64,000 nucleotides of DNA from Escherichia phage JLBYU50, in the sequence record OK272470.1. The stretch is one strand, 5' to 3'. Positions 39,545-56,140 of the stretch are shown piece after piece. A program made the position numbers and the translations under genes. The notes below the pieces were generated by a model. That model was not told where the DNA came from and did not search any database. It saw only the letters and a program-made list of their open reading frames with translations. The first letter of the stretch is position 1. Every line of letters starts with the position of its first letter.

Positions 39545-39812
39545 CTGATTGATCCTTTACATTGTTCTTGGCATACACAGGAATAACATCATTATGATCT
39601 TTATTACTTTCATCTGTTAAAGCCCAAAACAACTTACCTGCTGGATGTTTAAAGATGTAAGCAATAGGTTCCTCTTCCTGGGCTTCTTTGCTACGGATAC
39701 CATCCCGCCAGGCAAGCCAAGTGTAGATCATCACTTCTTGACGTTCTTCTTCGTTAGGCCACATATGTGATGGAAAGTTTTTATCAAACCATTGCTTAAA
39801 TTCTTCAGTCAT
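39531..39812 (-). CDS. Hypothetical protein
   Basis: 93 aa ORF. Confidence 0.4.
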   Translation of the reverse strand: MTEEFKQWFDKNFPSHMWPNEEERQEVMIYTWLAWRDGIRSKEAQEEEPIAYIFKHPAGKLFWALTDESNKDHNDVIPVYAKNNVKDQSDDNV

Positions 39813-40047
39813 AGTCTACTCCTTAGCGTACAAAGTTAACTTCTGCTTCTTTCAGCTTTGACACTTCTACATAACCACCATGATCATCTTTAATCCATTC
39901 TTTTCCTTTACGGATGATAACAGGATATGTAGAGTGAGTAAGTTTAGGTACAGATCTTTTTGTTTTAGTGATAGAAATGTTTTGCATAGTAGTCTCCTTA
40001 GTAAATTTTACATAGAGTCTAGATTATTTAGTAGATAGAGTCAATAA

Positions 40048-45411: not shown

Positions 45412-46404
45412 ATGGGAACACCAAAATCATGGGAACAATATAAAGAAGAATTAACACCTCTTGCTAAAAATCGCAATATTCAAATCCTGGGTTATGTTGG
45501 TGAATGGAAAGGGAATAAAACAAAACTTGATTTGTTGTGTCATTGTGGGTATAGATGGCAAAGTACAGCTATTACGGACTTTAAACGTGGTGGTGGTTGC
45601 CCCAGTTGTAATTTAGATAGCTTACGCAAACGTATAATCATCCCTGACGATCAACACATACAAGATTTCATGAATACTGGCGCTTTCCAACCAGGAACCA
45701 TCTTCATCAATACAGGGGAACGTACTGGAAATAGTGACAGTATTTGGTGTATAAAATGTCCTATTTGCTCATACGACGAATATGTACAAGCTGGAGTATG
45801 TGATGGTAAGTTTTATTCTACAAAGAGTAGTCTTAAAAACGGGAGTCTCGCTTGTCGTTGTTCTACACGTTATGTGTTTAGCGATCAGCAGTTAACATAC
45901 CGCATGAGAAAGGAGTTGCAGAAAAAAGATTTGATTTTTATTGAATGGGTAGGCAAACCTTCTGTAAGATTAGGTAAGTTTAAATATCTTTGTCTTGTAC
46001 ATGGGGAGCAGATAGGGAGTGCTAGTAACTTATTAAGCCACGGTCGAGGTTGTCCTATGTGTGCTGGTCATAGTCAGCAGCAGTTATATATTAATATTGT
46101 TAAGGATGATAATATTATAGTTGCTCTTAAGTTTGGTATAGCTAAAGATAGTGATAGGCGATTAAACATTCAAAATAGCCGTAATCTGTTTTTTATGGAA
46201 CGTATTTGTTTATATGATTTTAGCACAGTGAAACAGTGTAAGGCTGCTGAAAGAGCTATAAAGAAAAAATTAAAAACTGGTATTTTAACAGCAAGAGAGT
46301 TGAAAGACGGTCATACAGAAACAGTAAGTGTTTCTGATTTGGAAAATCTTCAAAAAATTATTACACAATATGGTGGCAAATTAGTATATAGTAAGGAGGT
46401 GTAA
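45412..46404 (+). CDS. Zn-ribbon repeat protein with C-terminal T5orf172/GIY-YIG-like domain
   Basis: 330 aa. Three Cys clusters (CHCGYRW...CPSC; CIKCPIC; GRGCPMC). C-terminal FGIAKDSDRRLNIQNSRNL resembles the T5orf172 motif (IGRT.N...RL...). Tentative. Confidence 0.45.
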   Translation: MGTPKSWEQYKEELTPLAKNRNIQILGYVGEWKGNKTKLDLLCHCGYRWQSTAITDFKRGGGCPSCNLDSLRKRIIIPDDQHIQDFMNTGAFQPGTIFINTGERTGNSDSIWCIKCPICSYDEYVQAGVCDGKFYSTKSSLKNGSLACRCSTRYVFSDQQLTYRMRKELQKKDLIFIEWVGKPSVRLGKFKYLCLVHGEQIGSASNLLSHGRGCPMCAGHSQQQLYINIVKDDNIIVALKFGIAKDSDRRLNIQNSRNLFFMERICLYDFSTVKQCKAAERAIKKKLKTGILTARELKDGHTETVSVSDLENLQKIITQYGGKLVYSKEV

Positions 46405-46956
46405 ATGCGGATTACTGATAAGTATGTGTTCTTCTTTTCAGCAAAAGATGAATTTAGCAACTGGTATCTATCATCTTTTATTGAACCTTTAGCTCCCAAG
46501 TATAATAATTCTATTACAAGTTCTGTTGAATTTACTTGTGTGGAACAATATATGATGTGGAGAAAAGCATGTTTATTTTATGATTACAACATTGCATCTT
46601 CTATTTTAACCGGAGATCTAAGATATACAGGAGAAAAAGAACAAGCATATTATAAGCGACTAGGCAGATTAGTTAAAGATTATGATGAAGATACCTGGAC
46701 TTCTTTACGGGAGAAGATTGTCAAACGTGGTTTGTATCTTAAATACACACAAAATGAAGATCTCAAAAATAAACTTATAGCCTACGCAGATAAGGAGTTC
46801 GTAGAGGCAAGCCCTTATGATTCTATTTATGGTATCAAAATGGGGATGTGGGATCGGGACGTGGAAAATAAGGATTGTTGGAAAGGACAAAATCTTTTAG
46901 GAAAATGGCATACAGACCTTGCTGTTTATCTAAAAGCACAATCTGATATTTCCTGA
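46405..46956 (+). CDS. NADAR-family protein (YbiA-like)
   Basis: 183 aa. Blocks YVFFFSAKDEFSNWY, CVEQYMMWRKACLF, EASPYDSIYGI match NADAR/DUF1768 (F..FSNFY ... EQ.YM..KA ... EASP.D.IWGIG). Confidence 0.7.
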   Translation: MRITDKYVFFFSAKDEFSNWYLSSFIEPLAPKYNNSITSSVEFTCVEQYMMWRKACLFYDYNIASSILTGDLRYTGEKEQAYYKRLGRLVKDYDEDTWTSLREKIVKRGLYLKYTQNEDLKNKLIAYADKEFVEASPYDSIYGIKMGMWDRDVENKDCWKGQNLLGKWHTDLAVYLKAQSDIS

Positions 46957-47174
46957 TATTTTGAAAATTTTTATTTTTATAAAAAGGGGTGTGGGTTTCA
47001 TGTACGGAAATTCACCCTCTGCACAGTATATCCAGAGTAAGTAGTATTCTATACCCTGTTAATAAAGTATTTAATTTGTTTGTTGGACTATGGTATCTGA
47101 TCTTTAAAAGGCATACTATCTCTTAACTACTACTTATAACAGAACAGTAAAATCATTTTTATAAAAAGTACAAA

Positions 47175-47372
47175 ATTATTTAAAGTTTTTACAGATTTTT
47201 GGGTACAAATTTTGAAAATGAAAAGTTCAAGTTTGGTCAAAATTATTTAAAGTTTTTGTACGTATTTCTATTCAGATTTTGAAAATGAAAACTTCAATTT
47301 TTTAAAAATTCCCCAGTTTATTTAAAGTTTTTTTGCCTTTTTCCGTAGAAAAATCAAAAATGAAAAGTTCAA
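47175..47372. repeat. Three tandem ~65-bp direct repeats (iteron-like)
   Basis: Unit = ATTTAAAGTTTTT + ~20 nt + TTTGAAAATGAAAAGTTCAA, at 47175-47230, 47241-47297 and 47318-47372. Confidence 0.6.
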
Positions 47373-47395
47373 TTTCGTGTTTTTATAGGTGTGTT

Positions 47396-47455
47396 AATGA
47401 GAATCATTTTCGTTTGTAAATGAGAATCATTAGCAAATGAGAATTTTCTCATTTA
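47396..47455. promoter_or_regulatory. Three tandem Fur-box-like sites (AATGAGAATCATT)
   Basis: AATGAGAATCATT at 47396-47408 and 47419-47431, and palindromic AAATGAGAATTTTCTCATTT at 47436-47455. One mismatch from the GATAATCATT core of the enterobacterial Fur box. Confidence 0.4.
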
Positions 47456-47715
47456 GAGAATAACGCGCAGGGGTGGTGTTTGTCTCGCGCTCCCGTGTCC
47501 CCTCGCCATACAATAAGAATAGCATAACCAACAACAAAAGCAAGCGATTATTTTTATCTTTACATTTCTTTACAAATTTATTTTGGACGAGCTACCGGCG
47601 ATCAACCTTCCAACCAGTGCCCCCTGGTATGTTAGCCCCGCCTTTACGCCGTGGGGGTGGCGTTTCCTCTTCTGTATGTAAAACAGTATAAGCCCGATCC
47701 CTGGGCTTGTCAATA

Positions 47716-47982
47716 TTATTTTTTGTTTTCTTGCCAGGATAGGACACCTAACCAAAAATACATGTCGCCCCGCGCCCCTGGCGGGATCTTGCTTTCCCCG
47801 CCGCCACTGCAAGCCCATAGATAACCATTTACGAACGTATCAAAGTGATCTATCTCTTCCACCTTATGATCGCCCAGGTTGAGAACGGTTTCAACCTTTA
47901 AGCCCGTTGCGCTTGCTACCTGGTGCACCGTGCCGCCTTGCCAGCCCAATGAGTGCATGAGATGTAAAGGAGTATTTGTCAT
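47716..47982 (-). CDS. Hypothetical small protein in GC-rich segment (possible HTH regulator)
   Basis: 88 aa ORF, only candidate on the - strand in the early region. Segment GWQGGTVHQVASATGLKVETV is HTH-like. Could instead be non-coding. Confidence 0.25.
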   Translation of the reverse strand: MTNTPLHLMHSLGWQGGTVHQVASATGLKVETVLNLGDHKVEEIDHFDTFVNGYLWACSGGGESKIPPGARGDMYFWLGVLSWQENKK

Positions 47983-48093
47983 GGTATCGCCCTTTCTTTG
48001 ATGTGCGCCCTGGTTGGCGCGGTAGAAAGATAATAGCCGTTTCCTTTATAGATAGCAAGCAAAAAAGAAATGAAAAAAAGATTAAAAAAAATG

Positions 48094-48152
48094 GTTGACG
48101 TTCCTCACCTGGTAGCGTAGTATTCATCTTGTCGAGGGGGCAATAGTGCCGC
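48094..48152 (+). promoter_or_regulatory. Early promoter cassette 1 (TTGACG-17-TAGTAT) with imperfect GC hairpin
   Basis: -35 at 48094-48099, -10 at 48117-48122, imperfect palindrome GGGGCAATAGTGCCGC at about 48136-48152, then RBS and ATG 48177. Confidence 0.5.
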
Positions 48153-48176
48153 TCATAACAGAAGAGAGAAATAATC

Positions 48177-49125: not shown

Positions 49126-49386
49126 TTGTTTTTTCTAAAAGTTTTTGATAATGTGATCGCTTTTGAACATGCTACAACGTTCGACCTGGCGAGATACGCT
49201 ATCAGGTTTAAAGATAATGTTTATCCCCGTGCTGGCGGCGGTTACACTATTTTTAATCATCGCAACGCGCAACTGACTGATGTAACTAATCCAGATCCTG
49301 GAGTGTATCGCATAGGCTGGCTACCGTCAAAAGACGCTGCAAGCATGTTTAAGGTGTGTAAACTACTAACAGAAGAGGCGAACTAG
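49126..49386 (+). CDS. Hypothetical early protein (TTG start)
   Basis: TTG start 5 nt after RBS GGAGGA. 86 aa. Confidence 0.35.
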   Translation: MFFLKVFDNVIAFEHATTFDLARYAIRFKDNVYPRAGGGYTIFNHRNAQLTDVTNPDPGVYRIGWLPSKDAASMFKVCKLLTEEAN

Positions 49387-49387
49387 C

Positions 49388-49942
49388 ATGGGGCGTGAAT
49401 ATGTGATCCAGTCCTGGGTAAAGCATGATGCTAATGATCCGCGCATAATACCAGATGACATGATCGATCACATGGTAGGGTATAGCGGGGAGCAGATAGG
49501 AAATCGAGCGGCAAAGAGCAACGGCAACACCAGGACGCGATCCGTTCGTCCTGGATGGCTGGCGAATGGTAACGCTGACATTGCAAGCGCCGCAGATCCA
49601 AGCGATGACGCTAAAAATAATCCCTTGTACAGCATTGATCCGGCTTTTAAGGTGTTGGAAGAGTATCCCGCTAAATTAGCCGCACTAGATAAGGCATACG
49701 AAGAAAAGCGCATGGCCTGGACTGTATACAACACCGCTAAAATGGTGCTAGATGCAAAACTAATTAAAGCCCAGGAGAAGATCAATAAACTTGTTACCAT
49801 AGCGCAAGAGGAAGACCAGGGCGACCAGGAGGAAGAGGAAGAAATCATGCCTACCCTGGAAGAGGAAGAGATCCAGCCATACATGCCGACGGAAGAGGAA
49901 AAAAGACAAGCCTTAAAAAATTATGAAAATTGCATTGTGTAA
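49388..49942 (+). CDS. Hypothetical protein with highly acidic C-terminal region
   Basis: 184 aa. C-terminal EEDQGDQEEEEEIMPTLEEEEIQPYMPTEEEK. Confidence 0.45.
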   Translation: MGREYVIQSWVKHDANDPRIIPDDMIDHMVGYSGEQIGNRAAKSNGNTRTRSVRPGWLANGNADIASAADPSDDAKNNPLYSIDPAFKVLEEYPAKLAALDKAYEEKRMAWTVYNTAKMVLDAKLIKAQEKINKLVTIAQEEDQGDQEEEEEIMPTLEEEEIQPYMPTEEEKRQALKNYENCIV

Positions 49943-54707: not shown

Positions 54708-54780
54708 AAATGATAATCATTCTTATTTATAGCTGATTATTTATGCAATAAACTGCATAATGCAATAATGATAATCATTC
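54708..54780. promoter_or_regulatory. Two Fur-box-like sites
   Basis: AAATGATAATCATTC at 54708-54722 and AATAATGATAATCATTC at 54764-54780. Each contains the 13-nt core AATGATAATCATT of the GATAATGATAATCATTATC consensus. Confidence 0.45.
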
Positions 54781-55154
54781 TTAACTTATGACCATCTAAC
54801 CTATAAAATAATAAGTTATCTAACTAAATTAAAGCTAACTATTTCACCTTTATTTATAACTTACTGTTACTATCTCATTGATAACCTTATATTAAACAAC
54901 AATAACTAATATAAATCATTATTAAGCTAACTATAATCTATCTAACCTTTAAAACTATAACTATAATCTATCTAATTGTTGCACAAAGTAACTATTAAAT
55001 TGTTAGTAACATTACTAAATAATTAATATCCTATTTATTTATGATCTAATCTTTACCTTCCTATTTATCACCTAACTAATCATTTCATACAATAATTATA
55101 ACAAGAAATATAATTCGCAAGCGTATCATTAGCAGCCTATGCCGGACACATAGG

Positions 55155-55303
55155 CGGCTAATAATAACGCAACTACACACCCCACATAATAACCATCACC
55201 GATAGTTATTATTTGTGCTTATGTAGCTTGCAACAATTGCAAGCGCAACAATATACATGGTATATTGTATCCCTTACATTGTTGCGGTGCGTTATTATTA
55301 GCT
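55155..55303. repeat. Nested inverted repeats in AT-rich non-coding region
   Basis: GCTAATAATAACGC (about 55156-55169) pairs with GCGTTATTATTAGC (about 55285-55298). Inner CGCAACAAT...ATTGTTGCG and CAATATAC-ATG-GTATATTG palindromes. Confidence 0.5.
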
Positions 55304-55602
55304 AATGTTTGGAACATTGGCTATAATATAAGCTATCCAATAATAAACATAGTGGATAATGACACTGATGATCATAATGCGCCACCTTCCAGGGGGCGCT
55401 ATGTGAACACAAAAAATCTTTCTTGTCAAGAAAAATATTACCATTATTGCGCAAAATTATTTATATATGAATAGATGGTTTTTCATACTATTATTGTTAT
55501 TTGTCGGGCATAACTATCCCTATTTGTTGAGCCTACTTTCTTAAAAGCGCAATAAATCAGAATTATCTTGATTTTTAGTGAGTTTTATAGTATAGAAAAT
55601 AT

Positions 55603-55621
55603 GCAAATGATAATCATTATC
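55603..55621. promoter_or_regulatory. Near-consensus Fur box
   Basis: GCAAATGATAATCATTATC matches GATAATGATAATCATTATC at 17 of 19 positions. Confidence 0.5.
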
Positions 55622-55788
55622 AGCTATCTTCCACGGGTGGCACTATTTCACGCCAGATCATTTCATTTGGCAAGGTGTATATAGATGTTTAGACTTGCCA
55701 AGCCATTGATTTACTTAGAATTTATCTGTTTTGTTGTGAGTAGTACCTTTCTTGCTCAGAAAATAATCAAAAGTCTTATAAGTCATTG

Positions 55789-55820
55789 AATGATAATGCA
55801 AATGATAATTATTCTCATTG
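55789..55820. promoter_or_regulatory. Overlapping Fur-box-like repeats
   Basis: GAATGATAATGCAAATGATAATTATTCTCATTG: two AATGATAAT half-sites followed by TCTCATT, the partner of the 47.4 kb boxes. Confidence 0.4.
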
Positions 55821-56111
55821 ATATTTGAGGGGGACGGTCGGCAGAAATCGGGGGCGCTGAAAATCGCGTTAAGCACCTCTCGCAAGCGAGCAGTATTTTG
55901 CGGCAAGTTATTGATATTATTGACTTTACGCTTATGAAAAGGGGGCGTGTCGAAATAAATCGGGTATACCGGAAAATTTTTGTGGCATAGATATTTATTT
56001 GTCTATATTATGTACAAAGGGGTGTGTTAAAAATAATAGGTATATATAGAATAATTGATAGGGAAATCCTATACTAAATCCTTCATTAATGATGTTCCTA
56101 TGTTGCTGTTC

Positions 56112-56140
56112 TTGTAACAGATGAAAAGATGCTATATGAT
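56112..56140 (+). promoter_or_regulatory. Candidate promoter (TTGTAA-17-TATGAT)
   Basis: -35 56112-56117, -10 56135-56140, upstream of RBS aaggag and ATG 56178. Confidence 0.35.

Follow-up and report, generated by a model that had tools for sequence, protein, structure and literature searches.

The primary origin of phage T7 consists of tandem promoters followed by an AT-rich region, and oriF and oriG of phage T4 are R-loops. The rV5/phi92-like phages are among the commonest large coliphages and are widely used as therapy candidates; to our knowledge, they have neither a mapped origin nor known regulatory RNAs. The rV5 paper reported only transcription-linked skew changes and no mapped origin (PMC3606486), and phages of the rV5 group are terminally redundant and circularly permuted, with an unmapped origin (PMC3475682, PMC3606486). 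The rV5-like phage PhiTE carries a pseudo-ToxI locus at 106,714-106,772 (PMC3475682). No transcriptome, origin-mapping or non-coding RNA report was found in the literature for this phage group. The present analysis concerns a 64,000-nt stretch of Escherichia phage JLBYU50 (OK272470.1, hereafter the window), a phi92-like coliphage of the genus Justusliebigvirus (Stephanstirmvirinae), in which a GC-rich island holds two things side by side: a real small gene, gp224 (47716-47982, minus strand), and a candidate conserved non-coding RNA (ncRNA) with a core of ~100 nt (47577-47679, minus strand).

Like the origin regions of T7, T4 and ColE1, with the transcript RNA II of the latter, the locus displays tandem promoters directed into an AT-rich, repeat-bearing region free of open reading frames (ORFs), and like RNA II the candidate RNA appears structured and conserved; unlike them, it shares no sequence similarity with these systems and belongs to a group in which no origin has been mapped. 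Pseudo-ToxI of PhiTE, likewise a non-coding RNA of an rV5-like phage, was rejected as a counterpart: the present element lies at 39,680-39,845 in PhiTE, and both the sequence and the 36-nt repeat architecture of pseudo-ToxI are unrelated to it.

The segment 47460-47990 displayed a GC content of 0.490 against 0.377 for the whole window, which ranks it at the 99.9th percentile among 531-nt windows; the richest of these (0.493) began at 47462. Two GC-rich non-coding blocks (47460-47520, GC 0.56; 47590-47715, GC 0.55) were separated by an AT-rich spacer (47521-47589, GC 0.28) and followed by the ORF part (47716-47982, GC 0.50). The contrast was sharp on the left, the flank 47100-47459 having a GC content of 0.23, and mild on the right, where stretches of the early block (49218-49913) are just as rich in GC. 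The island announced by a first-pass annotation was thus real. That annotation had proposed either a Cro/repressor-like regulator or a structured ncRNA for it; a gene with a helix-turn-helix (HTH)-like motif and a candidate ncRNA are both present, the latter lying at 47577-47679 and hence separate from the ORF at 47716-47982. A 1.5-kb query around the island matched 141 phage records, the closest (96-98% identity over the full length) being Escherichia phages PHB05, phi92, alia, Paula and others of Justusliebigvirus. We tentatively favor, at slightly less than even chances, a reading of the island as a compact leftward-transcribed module within a 1.2-kb control region between two rightward gene blocks.

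Judging from sequence comparison, the minus strand of 47577-47679 is likely to be transcribed into a structured ncRNA. When loci of gp224 relatives were compared by BLAST, the DNA of distant gp224 genes was barely alignable, yet positions 47557-47723 aligned at 78-82%. A distant-mode search with 47540-47720 revealed a relative of the RNA in at least 245 phage records spanning Stephanstirmvirinae, Vequintavirinae and Plateaulakevirus, with Escherichia, Klebsiella, Salmonella, Cronobacter, Pectobacterium, Enterobacter, Erwinia, Proteus, Serratia, Aeromonas and others among the host names. Matches in distant genera covered query positions 39-164 (window 47682-47557) at 76-85% identity and were mostly unannotated. 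A covariance model built from 32 sequences recognized a single copy in the window (47679-47577; 111 bits, E = 2e-28) and gave 45 matches in relatives, including Aeromonas phage 4L372XY at 31 bits; five further copies were found in later loci (KP13-16, Kashira, A5-4, PAc and 2L372D). When 185,579 bacterial and archaeal genomes were searched for an exact 20-mer of the core, no more than two contigs contained it, both from metagenome-assembled genomes and one carrying the phage element itself; metagenome matches were mostly phage-size contigs, many of ~145-152 kb.

The RNA element was more conserved than the surrounding genes in every relative compared. Its core diverged from the window copy by 7-23%, while the adjacent gp224 genes displayed proportions of synonymous differences (pS) of 0.48-0.82. 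Divergence of the core was 7-8% in the Av-05-like phages (gp224 pS 0.61-0.63), 23% in W70 (pS 0.61) and 22% in 05F01 (pS 0.82, saturated). Indels across 47577-47679 comprised one nucleotide (CCCCC versus CCCC), homopolymer changes of 1-2 nt and 4-6 nt at a hairpin tip; they break the frame, and nucleotides common to the relatives fall in different frames, so the core is non-coding; its one long frame lacks a start codon. A short peptide gene was rejected since no start codon follows the leader, which resembles a Shine-Dalgarno (SD) sequence, and so was a peptide gene running from ACG to UAG, whose frame differs among relatives (1-nt indel, loop indels and homopolymers varying by 1-2 nt).

Three scans against Rfam 15, one of them a permissive scan of 281 nt, gave no family match to the RNA or its relatives, the best scores on the element being 15.8 bits for ohsC (gathering score 50) and 12.1 bits for SQ2397 (gathering score 100); ARAGORN predicted no transfer RNA (tRNA) and no transfer-messenger RNA over the whole window. 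Mimicry of a type I-E CRISPR (clustered regularly interspaced short palindromic repeats) repeat, a hepatitis delta virus-like ribozyme, a GGAA hairpin like that of the signal recognition particle RNA and likeness to a tRNA 5' half were considered and dropped, as the partner strands or motifs were absent and covariance models gave no support. As a candidate new phage RNA family the element is well supported, and neither an Rfam 15 family nor a public description of it was found.

Public records leave the element unannotated or cover it with coding sequences (CDSs) for hypothetical proteins. Up to eight such CDSs per 1.5 kb lie over the RNA and the neighboring repeats in PHB05, EC.P2, VivaForever, Antha, Eryne and other records, and these are probably over-annotations of composition-driven ORFs.

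Cross-genus sequence conservation (78-85% identity) begins at the predicted transcription start of a near-consensus sigma-70 promoter, P1 (47685-47713, minus strand; 11/12 in the scan), composed of TTGACA at 47713-47708, a 17-nt spacer and TATACT at 47690-47685, with a predicted start at ~47677-47679. Its spacer also forms a GC hairpin (AAGCCC-AGGGATC-GGGCTT, 47690-47708, with terminator-like matches on both strands), which lies directly 3' of the gp224 stop codon and is a candidate intrinsic terminator of that gene; terminator and next promoter are interleaved, the hairpin of the one being the spacer of the other. At the same position relatives displayed a GC-rich and often hairpin-forming spacer of different sequence. 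A survey covered 44 distinct RNA copies, for which the 75 nt upstream of the first helix were scored (this anchor was missing in two). The best -35/-10 pair reached at least 9/12 in 42 of the 44, with 12/12 in four, 11/12 in 16 and 10/12 in ten copies; spacing was 17-18 nt and the distance from the end of the -10 hexamer to the first helix was 16-23 nt, in 41 copies 19-23 nt, while the spacer sequence varied between clades.

The predicted RNA opens with a purine-rich SD-like leader (47665-47675), followed by the pseudoknot helices S1 (47659-47662 with 47647-47650) and S2 (47653-47657 with 47636-47639), a bulged hairpin H2 (47611-47631) and a near-invariant 16-nt tail GATCGCCGGTAGCTCG (47588-47603), all on the minus strand. 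S1 comprises four base pairs (CGCC/GGCG) closing a loop of 7-8 nt, four nucleotides of which can pair with the four just ahead of a conserved CUAA(C/G), 6-7 A-rich nt downstream; because the S1 loop pairs with downstream sequence, the fold is an H-type pseudoknot. The S2 complementarity held at all four positions in 47 of 47 real copies and occurred in several versions: CCCC:GGGG in the main type, CCAA:UUGG in P8734, A5-4, Ro1 and Aeromonas phage PAc, CCAG:CUGG in locus L010, CCAU:AUGG in Aeromonas phage 2L372D, and U-G variants in 4MG and the Av-05 type. In 2L372D the first helix had also changed, from CGCC/GGCG to GGAC/GUCU. By sequence comparison, the RNA thus shows the pairing of an H-type pseudoknot with compensatory changes in both S2 and S1.

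Hairpin H2 behaved similarly: its pair 50-72 was A-U in 17 sequences and G-C in 13, and its pair 53-70 was C-G, G-C or G-U, while the tip varied in length and sequence. Divergent versions kept the architecture with different stems and displayed GNRA tetraloops, as in CAU-A-GC[GAAA]GC-AUG (L010) and GAU-A-CUU[GCAA]AAG-AUC (Aeromonas phages). The structure was 86-92% paired, against 17-46% when partners were slid by 1-3 columns, and none of 500 shuffles reached the observed covariation score. The 3' tail, (G/A)AUCGCCGGUAGCUCG, was essentially invariant even where its proposed partners change, which points to sequence-specific recognition and not to pairing alone. Proposed pairs included 54 G-U and four A-C cells, which favors the minus strand and agrees with the direction of the promoter.

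The pseudoknot (loops of 1-2, 1-2 and 6-7 nt) resembles preQ1-I riboswitch aptamers and viral regulatory pseudoknots in topology only, a loop pairing 3' across an A-rich linker. It differs in lacking an Rfam match and in its place at the 5' end of a transcript with no ORF downstream, which excludes both a riboswitch leader and a frameshift signal.

Two sequence types of the RNA, the main one and a P8734 type with another pseudoknot and a longer H2, were scattered across genera. Raoultella phage Ro1 displayed both on the same strand, ~640 nt apart (locus L088, 7025-7130 and 6287-6386), its main-type copy being degenerate at the 3' end. This scatter, seen in Ro1 and in loci L120, L133 and L010, is reminiscent of exchangeable specificity alleles.

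Conservation continued beyond the core with the near-invariant sequence TTTGTAAAGAA(A/T)(T/C)GTAAAGA and then CGCTTGC. It includes a direct repeat, TTTGTAAAGAAATGTAAAG (47557-47576, minus strand; GTAAAG twice, 10 nt apart), near-invariant across genera and situated just upstream of a second promoter; it belongs either to that promoter, as an upstream element, or to the RNA, as its 3' part. A related GTAAAAGCGCTTGC stood ahead of the ncRNA promoter in Aeromonas phages. This second promoter, P2 (TTGCTT-16-TATTCT, 47516-47543, minus strand), was read by eye and unlisted in the scan; in most other genera its position was occupied by TTGCAA-17-TATATT (9/12) with the conserved CGCTTGC. Next came a GC-rich hairpin 2 (47463-47509, minus strand; GGCGAGGGG ... 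CCCCTGCGC) with the conserved motif GAGACAAACACC, which aligned across genera, displayed changes in its outer stem (AGCGGG/CCCGCT and G-U variants) and was present in the minimum free energy fold. It is followed by ATTC(T/A)G across genera (ATTCT here); the GUUAUUCUCU after it is a weak U-tract not conserved as such. From its sequence, hairpin 2 could act as a weak terminator or form another structured element. A third promoter on the same strand, P3, was read from the alignment after the palindromic boxes described below in Klebsiella-type and Seunavirus-type phages. No conserved ORF was found on the RNA strand downstream of the RNA, either in the ORF list of the window or in the relatives' loci; the CDSs W70_22 and A73_40, annotated there with a TTG start, were rejected as translations of tandem repeats.

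Just outside the island lies an array of palindromes (47393-47455) composed of GTTAATGAGAATCATTTTC, GTAAATGAGAATCATTAGC and AAATGAGAATTTTCTCATTT, the first two matching the Fur-box consensus of Enterobacterales (GATAATGATAATCATTATC) at 16 and 15 of 19 positions and the palindromic core being AATGA[T/G]AATCATT. Four sites with at most three mismatches to this consensus were found in the window, against 0.03 expected. In 31 of 33 relatives, which come from several genera, boxes (at least 14/19) lay downstream of the RNA at a distance of 60-400 nt, ~110-120 nt being the commonest, and many of these relatives had overlapping boxes 6 nt apart; box density there was 6.4 per kb, compared with 0.18 per kb elsewhere in these loci. 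They resemble genuine Fur boxes in match (14-17/19), in overlap with an offset of 6 nt, in array formation and in conserved position, and differ from them in belonging to a virulent phage and in lacking a clear promoter overlap in this window: no convincing sigma-70 promoter overlaps 47393-47455, by hand or in the promoter scan. Their ligand could be host Fur or a phage protein. Were Fur to bind these arrays, this would be an unusual case of a virulent phage wired to a host metal regulator.

Beyond the boxes, three AT-rich tandem repeats of ~67-75 bp with the core TTTTGAAAATGAAAAGTTCAA occupy 47155-47375, which the first-pass annotation had called an iteron region. Homologous repeats of AAAATGAAAA type lie beyond the boxes in L008 and W70 as well. 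Their orientation relative to the RNA flips between the phi92 group and W70/L008, for which reason they are considered to act as DNA sites; this suggests iteron-like protein-binding sites and not transcribed repeats. Repeats with a AAAATGAAAA(G)...TTCAA core followed the boxes in different genera (47155-47375 here, 3360-3540 in L008 and 2340-2540 in L121).

Fur-box-like arrays were confined to the edges of two large non-coding regions of the window, at 47393-47455 on the one hand and at 54709-54721, 54764-54782, 55603-55621 and 55801-55819 on the other; sites at 54.7-55.6 kb matched at 16-17/19. The second of these regions (54733-56120) is ORF-free over ~1.4 kb, very AT-rich and rich in short direct repeats such as CTAACTATAATCTATCTAA, and contains at 55351-55359 the sequence AGTGGATAA, which resembles a DnaA box.

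The RNA module always pointed against the flanking genes, toward the palindromic boxes and the AT-rich tandem repeats. Its upstream neighbor was less constant: gp224 was inverted in L008 and belongs there to the rightward block, with the orientation of the RNA module unchanged, and Mydo and P8734 displayed unrelated small proteins in the slot upstream of the RNA. These arrangements make the RNA module the constant feature and gp224 an exchangeable neighbor.

gp224 itself is a real gene under purifying selection. The ORF (88 amino acids, ATG start, preceded by an AGGG SD sequence) was the only conserved reading frame of the island. As the first-pass annotation had stated, it is the only sizeable one and runs opposite to the early block, indeed against both flanking blocks; comparison with relatives, which that annotation had proposed as a check, found it conserved. 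Its suspicion of composition-driven alternative frames was right for the ORFs overlapping gp224 (72, 82, 57 and 147 amino acids), which were without support, and the separation of gp224 from these is a gain for annotation. The gene is the same as Phi92_gp224 (CDS PHI92_224), a hypothetical protein whose minus-strand gene has gp223 (NADAR-like) on one side and two small early genes, gp225 and gp226, on the other; position and strand are the same here, the closest relatives are 97-99% identical, and Paula and alia are annotated likewise, alia with two repeat regions marked to its left. It matched PHROG 19316 (phrog_19316), a family of hypothetical proteins from Stephanstirmvirinae and Vequintavirinae, over its full length (E = 5.4e-58, residues 1-88 of 88). 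The family being already annotated as hypothetical, this is the ordinary half of the finding.

A search of 5.8 billion proteins gave 21 relatives of gp224, down to 40% identity and nearly all of 86-93 amino acids, which share a near-invariant N-terminus, TLHLMHSLGWQGGTVHQVASATGLKVETILNL, and a C-terminal FW.GV motif. The ratio of nonsynonymous to synonymous substitution rates between orthologs (dN/dS, by Nei-Gojobori) was 0.10-0.28, with dS up to ~1.3. AlphaFold2, given the homolog alignment, predicted five helices (predicted local distance difference test, pLDDT, 94; predicted template modeling score 0.87). The HTH-like element consists of the second and third of these (residues 19-26 and 30-38), so that the HTH-like segment noticed earlier, N-terminal LGWQGGTVHQVASATGL including GWQGGTVHQVA, stands as a motif in this high-pLDDT model. 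Used as a query, the N-terminal domain retrieved 60 further proteins, mostly stand-alone, metagenomic and of 44-76 amino acids, none with a Pfam domain; it was fused to other sequence in L014 and L016.

gp224 had no Pfam, NCBIfam or PADLOC family match and no significant Foldseek match in PDB, and matches in BFVD were uncharacterized members of its own family only; a profile search of PDB sequences gave E = 0.5-1.7 only (an HU N-terminus and an XRE-type prophage protein). gp224 is thus a genuine small protein, all-helical in the model and possibly DNA-binding. A candidate sigma-70 promoter for the gene (TTGCTA-17-TATTAT, 48030-48058, minus strand; 9/12 in a consensus scan alone) lies back-to-back with the rightward early promoter at 48095-48123.

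The following scheme is proposed for the locus. P1 would start an ncRNA at ~47679, made early by the host RNA polymerase and comprising in order the SD-like leader, the H-type pseudoknot, the bulged hairpin with its variable tip and the near-invariant tail AUCGCCGGUAGCUCG. Since no clean intrinsic terminator follows, transcription should run past P2 and the GC hairpin toward the boxes and repeats. The RNA may act at its own locus, as the RNA part of an origin of replication or a control region. It could work there by transcriptional activation, as a primer or as a regulator, much as T7 primary-origin transcripts or ColE1 RNA II do; a conserved partner, protein or RNA, would then recognize the pseudoknot and the invariant tail, and gp224 would be a neighboring exchangeable, putatively DNA-binding protein but not an obligatory partner of the RNA. 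Such a locus-linked role, drawn by analogy and put forward with distinct reserve, is suggested by up to three tandem promoters that fire through palindromes into ORF-free AT-rich repeats, and by the conserved orientation, the absence of a clean terminator and the existence of two exchangeable types. P1 and P2, joined by P3 in the Klebsiella and Seunavirus types, do point at the boxes and at repeats of 21.5-24% GC.

Several points weigh against a structured RNA with a role at its own locus. The 225-nt minus-strand fold was not significantly more stable than shuffles (z-score +0.6), and RNAalifold consensus energies were weak (-9.0 kcal/mol for the minus strand versus -6.8 kcal/mol for the other); with folding energetics so unimpressive, the case for structure rests on comparative evidence. 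The covariation comes from few divergent lineages, as most copies are near-identical in paired regions, several CGCC/GGCG segments permit competing pairings that make the fold outside the pseudoknot and H2 ambiguous, and the comparison of G-U with A-C pairs is biased since two of the helices had themselves been predicted on the minus strand. In this window P2 is weak, at 7/12, the scan found no intrinsic terminator directly after the RNA core, no initiator gene was identified, and the region 54733-56120 is at least as origin-like as 47.1-47.5 kb.

Nearly as likely as a locus-linked role, though still doubtful, is an action in trans: the RNA would be a free early small RNA or a decoy for a protein, and its position beside the repeats would be incidental. 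Its tail or SD-like leader would contact a partner conserved across Enterobacterales and Aeromonas, which could be an mRNA, a ribosomal RNA, a tRNA or a protein such as CsrA, Hfq, an RNase or RNA polymerase. Such an RNA would account for the strong promoter of its own in all scored copies, the single copy per genome, the GGA and SD-like motifs at the 5' end, the conservation in phages of different host genera and the compact conserved core, invariant in stretches that belong to neither the pseudoknot nor H2 (AUCGCCGGUAGCUCG, CUAAC, GGAAGGU). It would leave unexplained the fixed linkage and orientation to boxes and repeats across genera; the U-tailed terminator typical of Hfq-type small RNAs is missing, as are the GGA motifs in some members (e.g. 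L010), and a BLAST search of the tail against 5,426 E. coli genomes gave no match, a result that is uninformative because such a search is blind to short pairings. An action of the conserved 100 bp as DNA, by way of a GC-rich platform or a cruciform to which a protein of replication, packaging or regulation binds, the promoter hexamers being incidental, would fit a conservation that goes far beyond the needs of helices, as in the invariant 16-mer, the weak thermodynamic support for folding, the clearly DNA-level nature of the neighboring boxes and repeats and the headful packaging of these phages from an unmapped pac site (PMC3475682). However, loop-to-downstream pairing with four compensated versions is an RNA feature that has no counterpart in duplex DNA, the hexamers keep a near-fixed distance while their spacer changes, conservation starts exactly at the predicted transcription start and G-U outnumber A-C pairs by 54 to 4; pseudoknot covariation and the conserved promoter together make a purely DNA-level role very unlikely.

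It is also improbable, if somewhat less so, that gp224 is the functional center, acting as a Cro/repressor-like regulator on the nearby palindromes, with the GC-rich non-coding DNA as its terminator and 3' flank. gp224 shares with Cro/CI (XRE) regulators its small size, its helical fold, its HTH-like motif and its divergence from the early genes and early promoter, dyad-symmetric boxes lie ~260 bp away, and the slot of phage P8734 holds another small protein that is winged-helix-like as read from its sequence. What separates it from these regulators is the lack of any sequence similarity or significant fold similarity, its GWQGGTVHQVA domain forming a family of its own of stand-alone proteins (31-76 amino acids): the test against Cro/CI/XRE profiles gave no Pfam HTH or NCBIfam match and a best XRE-type PDB profile match of E = 1.2, and Foldseek comparison with Cro, P2 C and XRE structures gave E >= 0.5, with template modeling scores of 0.28-0.36 for five named structures. 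With nothing tying gp224 to Cro, CI or XRE, the Cro/repressor label given earlier was not sustained, and a regulator role stays an inference. Moreover, the non-coding element was kept where gp224 is absent (Mydo, P8734) or inverted (L008), the boxes match the consensus of host Fur and do not look phage-specific, and the palindromes at 47393-47455 overlap neither the gp224 promoter nor the early promoter. A bolder extension of the locus-linked reading, for which we see only a small chance, would make this phage RNA family the RNA part of an rV5/phi92-like replication or control hub that also recruits host Fur via the box arrays and couples the development of a virulent phage to the iron status of its host. 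For the whole phage group, the RNA element offers a testable handle on early regulation or replication control through its promoter, its predicted 5' end, its pseudoknot with natural compensatory variants and its invariant 16-mer.

Some minor observations concern the surroundings. The leader of the first rightward early gene (48130-48176; CATAACAGAAGAGAGAAATAATCATG, preceded by TGTCGAGGGGGCA) resembled the 5' end of the RNA (CATACAGAAGAGGAAAC, 47660-47679) and also the start of hairpin 2 (TGGCGAGGGGACA, 47496-47508); to go by this likeness, it could be the trace of a duplicated early promoter-leader unit. The neighboring genes on the left (45412-46404 and 46405-46956) encode a CapR/T5orf172-type putative homing endonuclease (PHROG 681) and a NADAR-domain protein (Pfam E = 2.5e-36), both annotated in phi92 simply as conserved hypothetical proteins. 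Four records were named Campylobacter phage A145, A110a, A150 and C3 (among MG065645, MG065689, MG065639 and MG065656); the first three were ~96% identical to the present coliphage locus and C3 displayed the same RNA element, and their host attribution looks doubtful.

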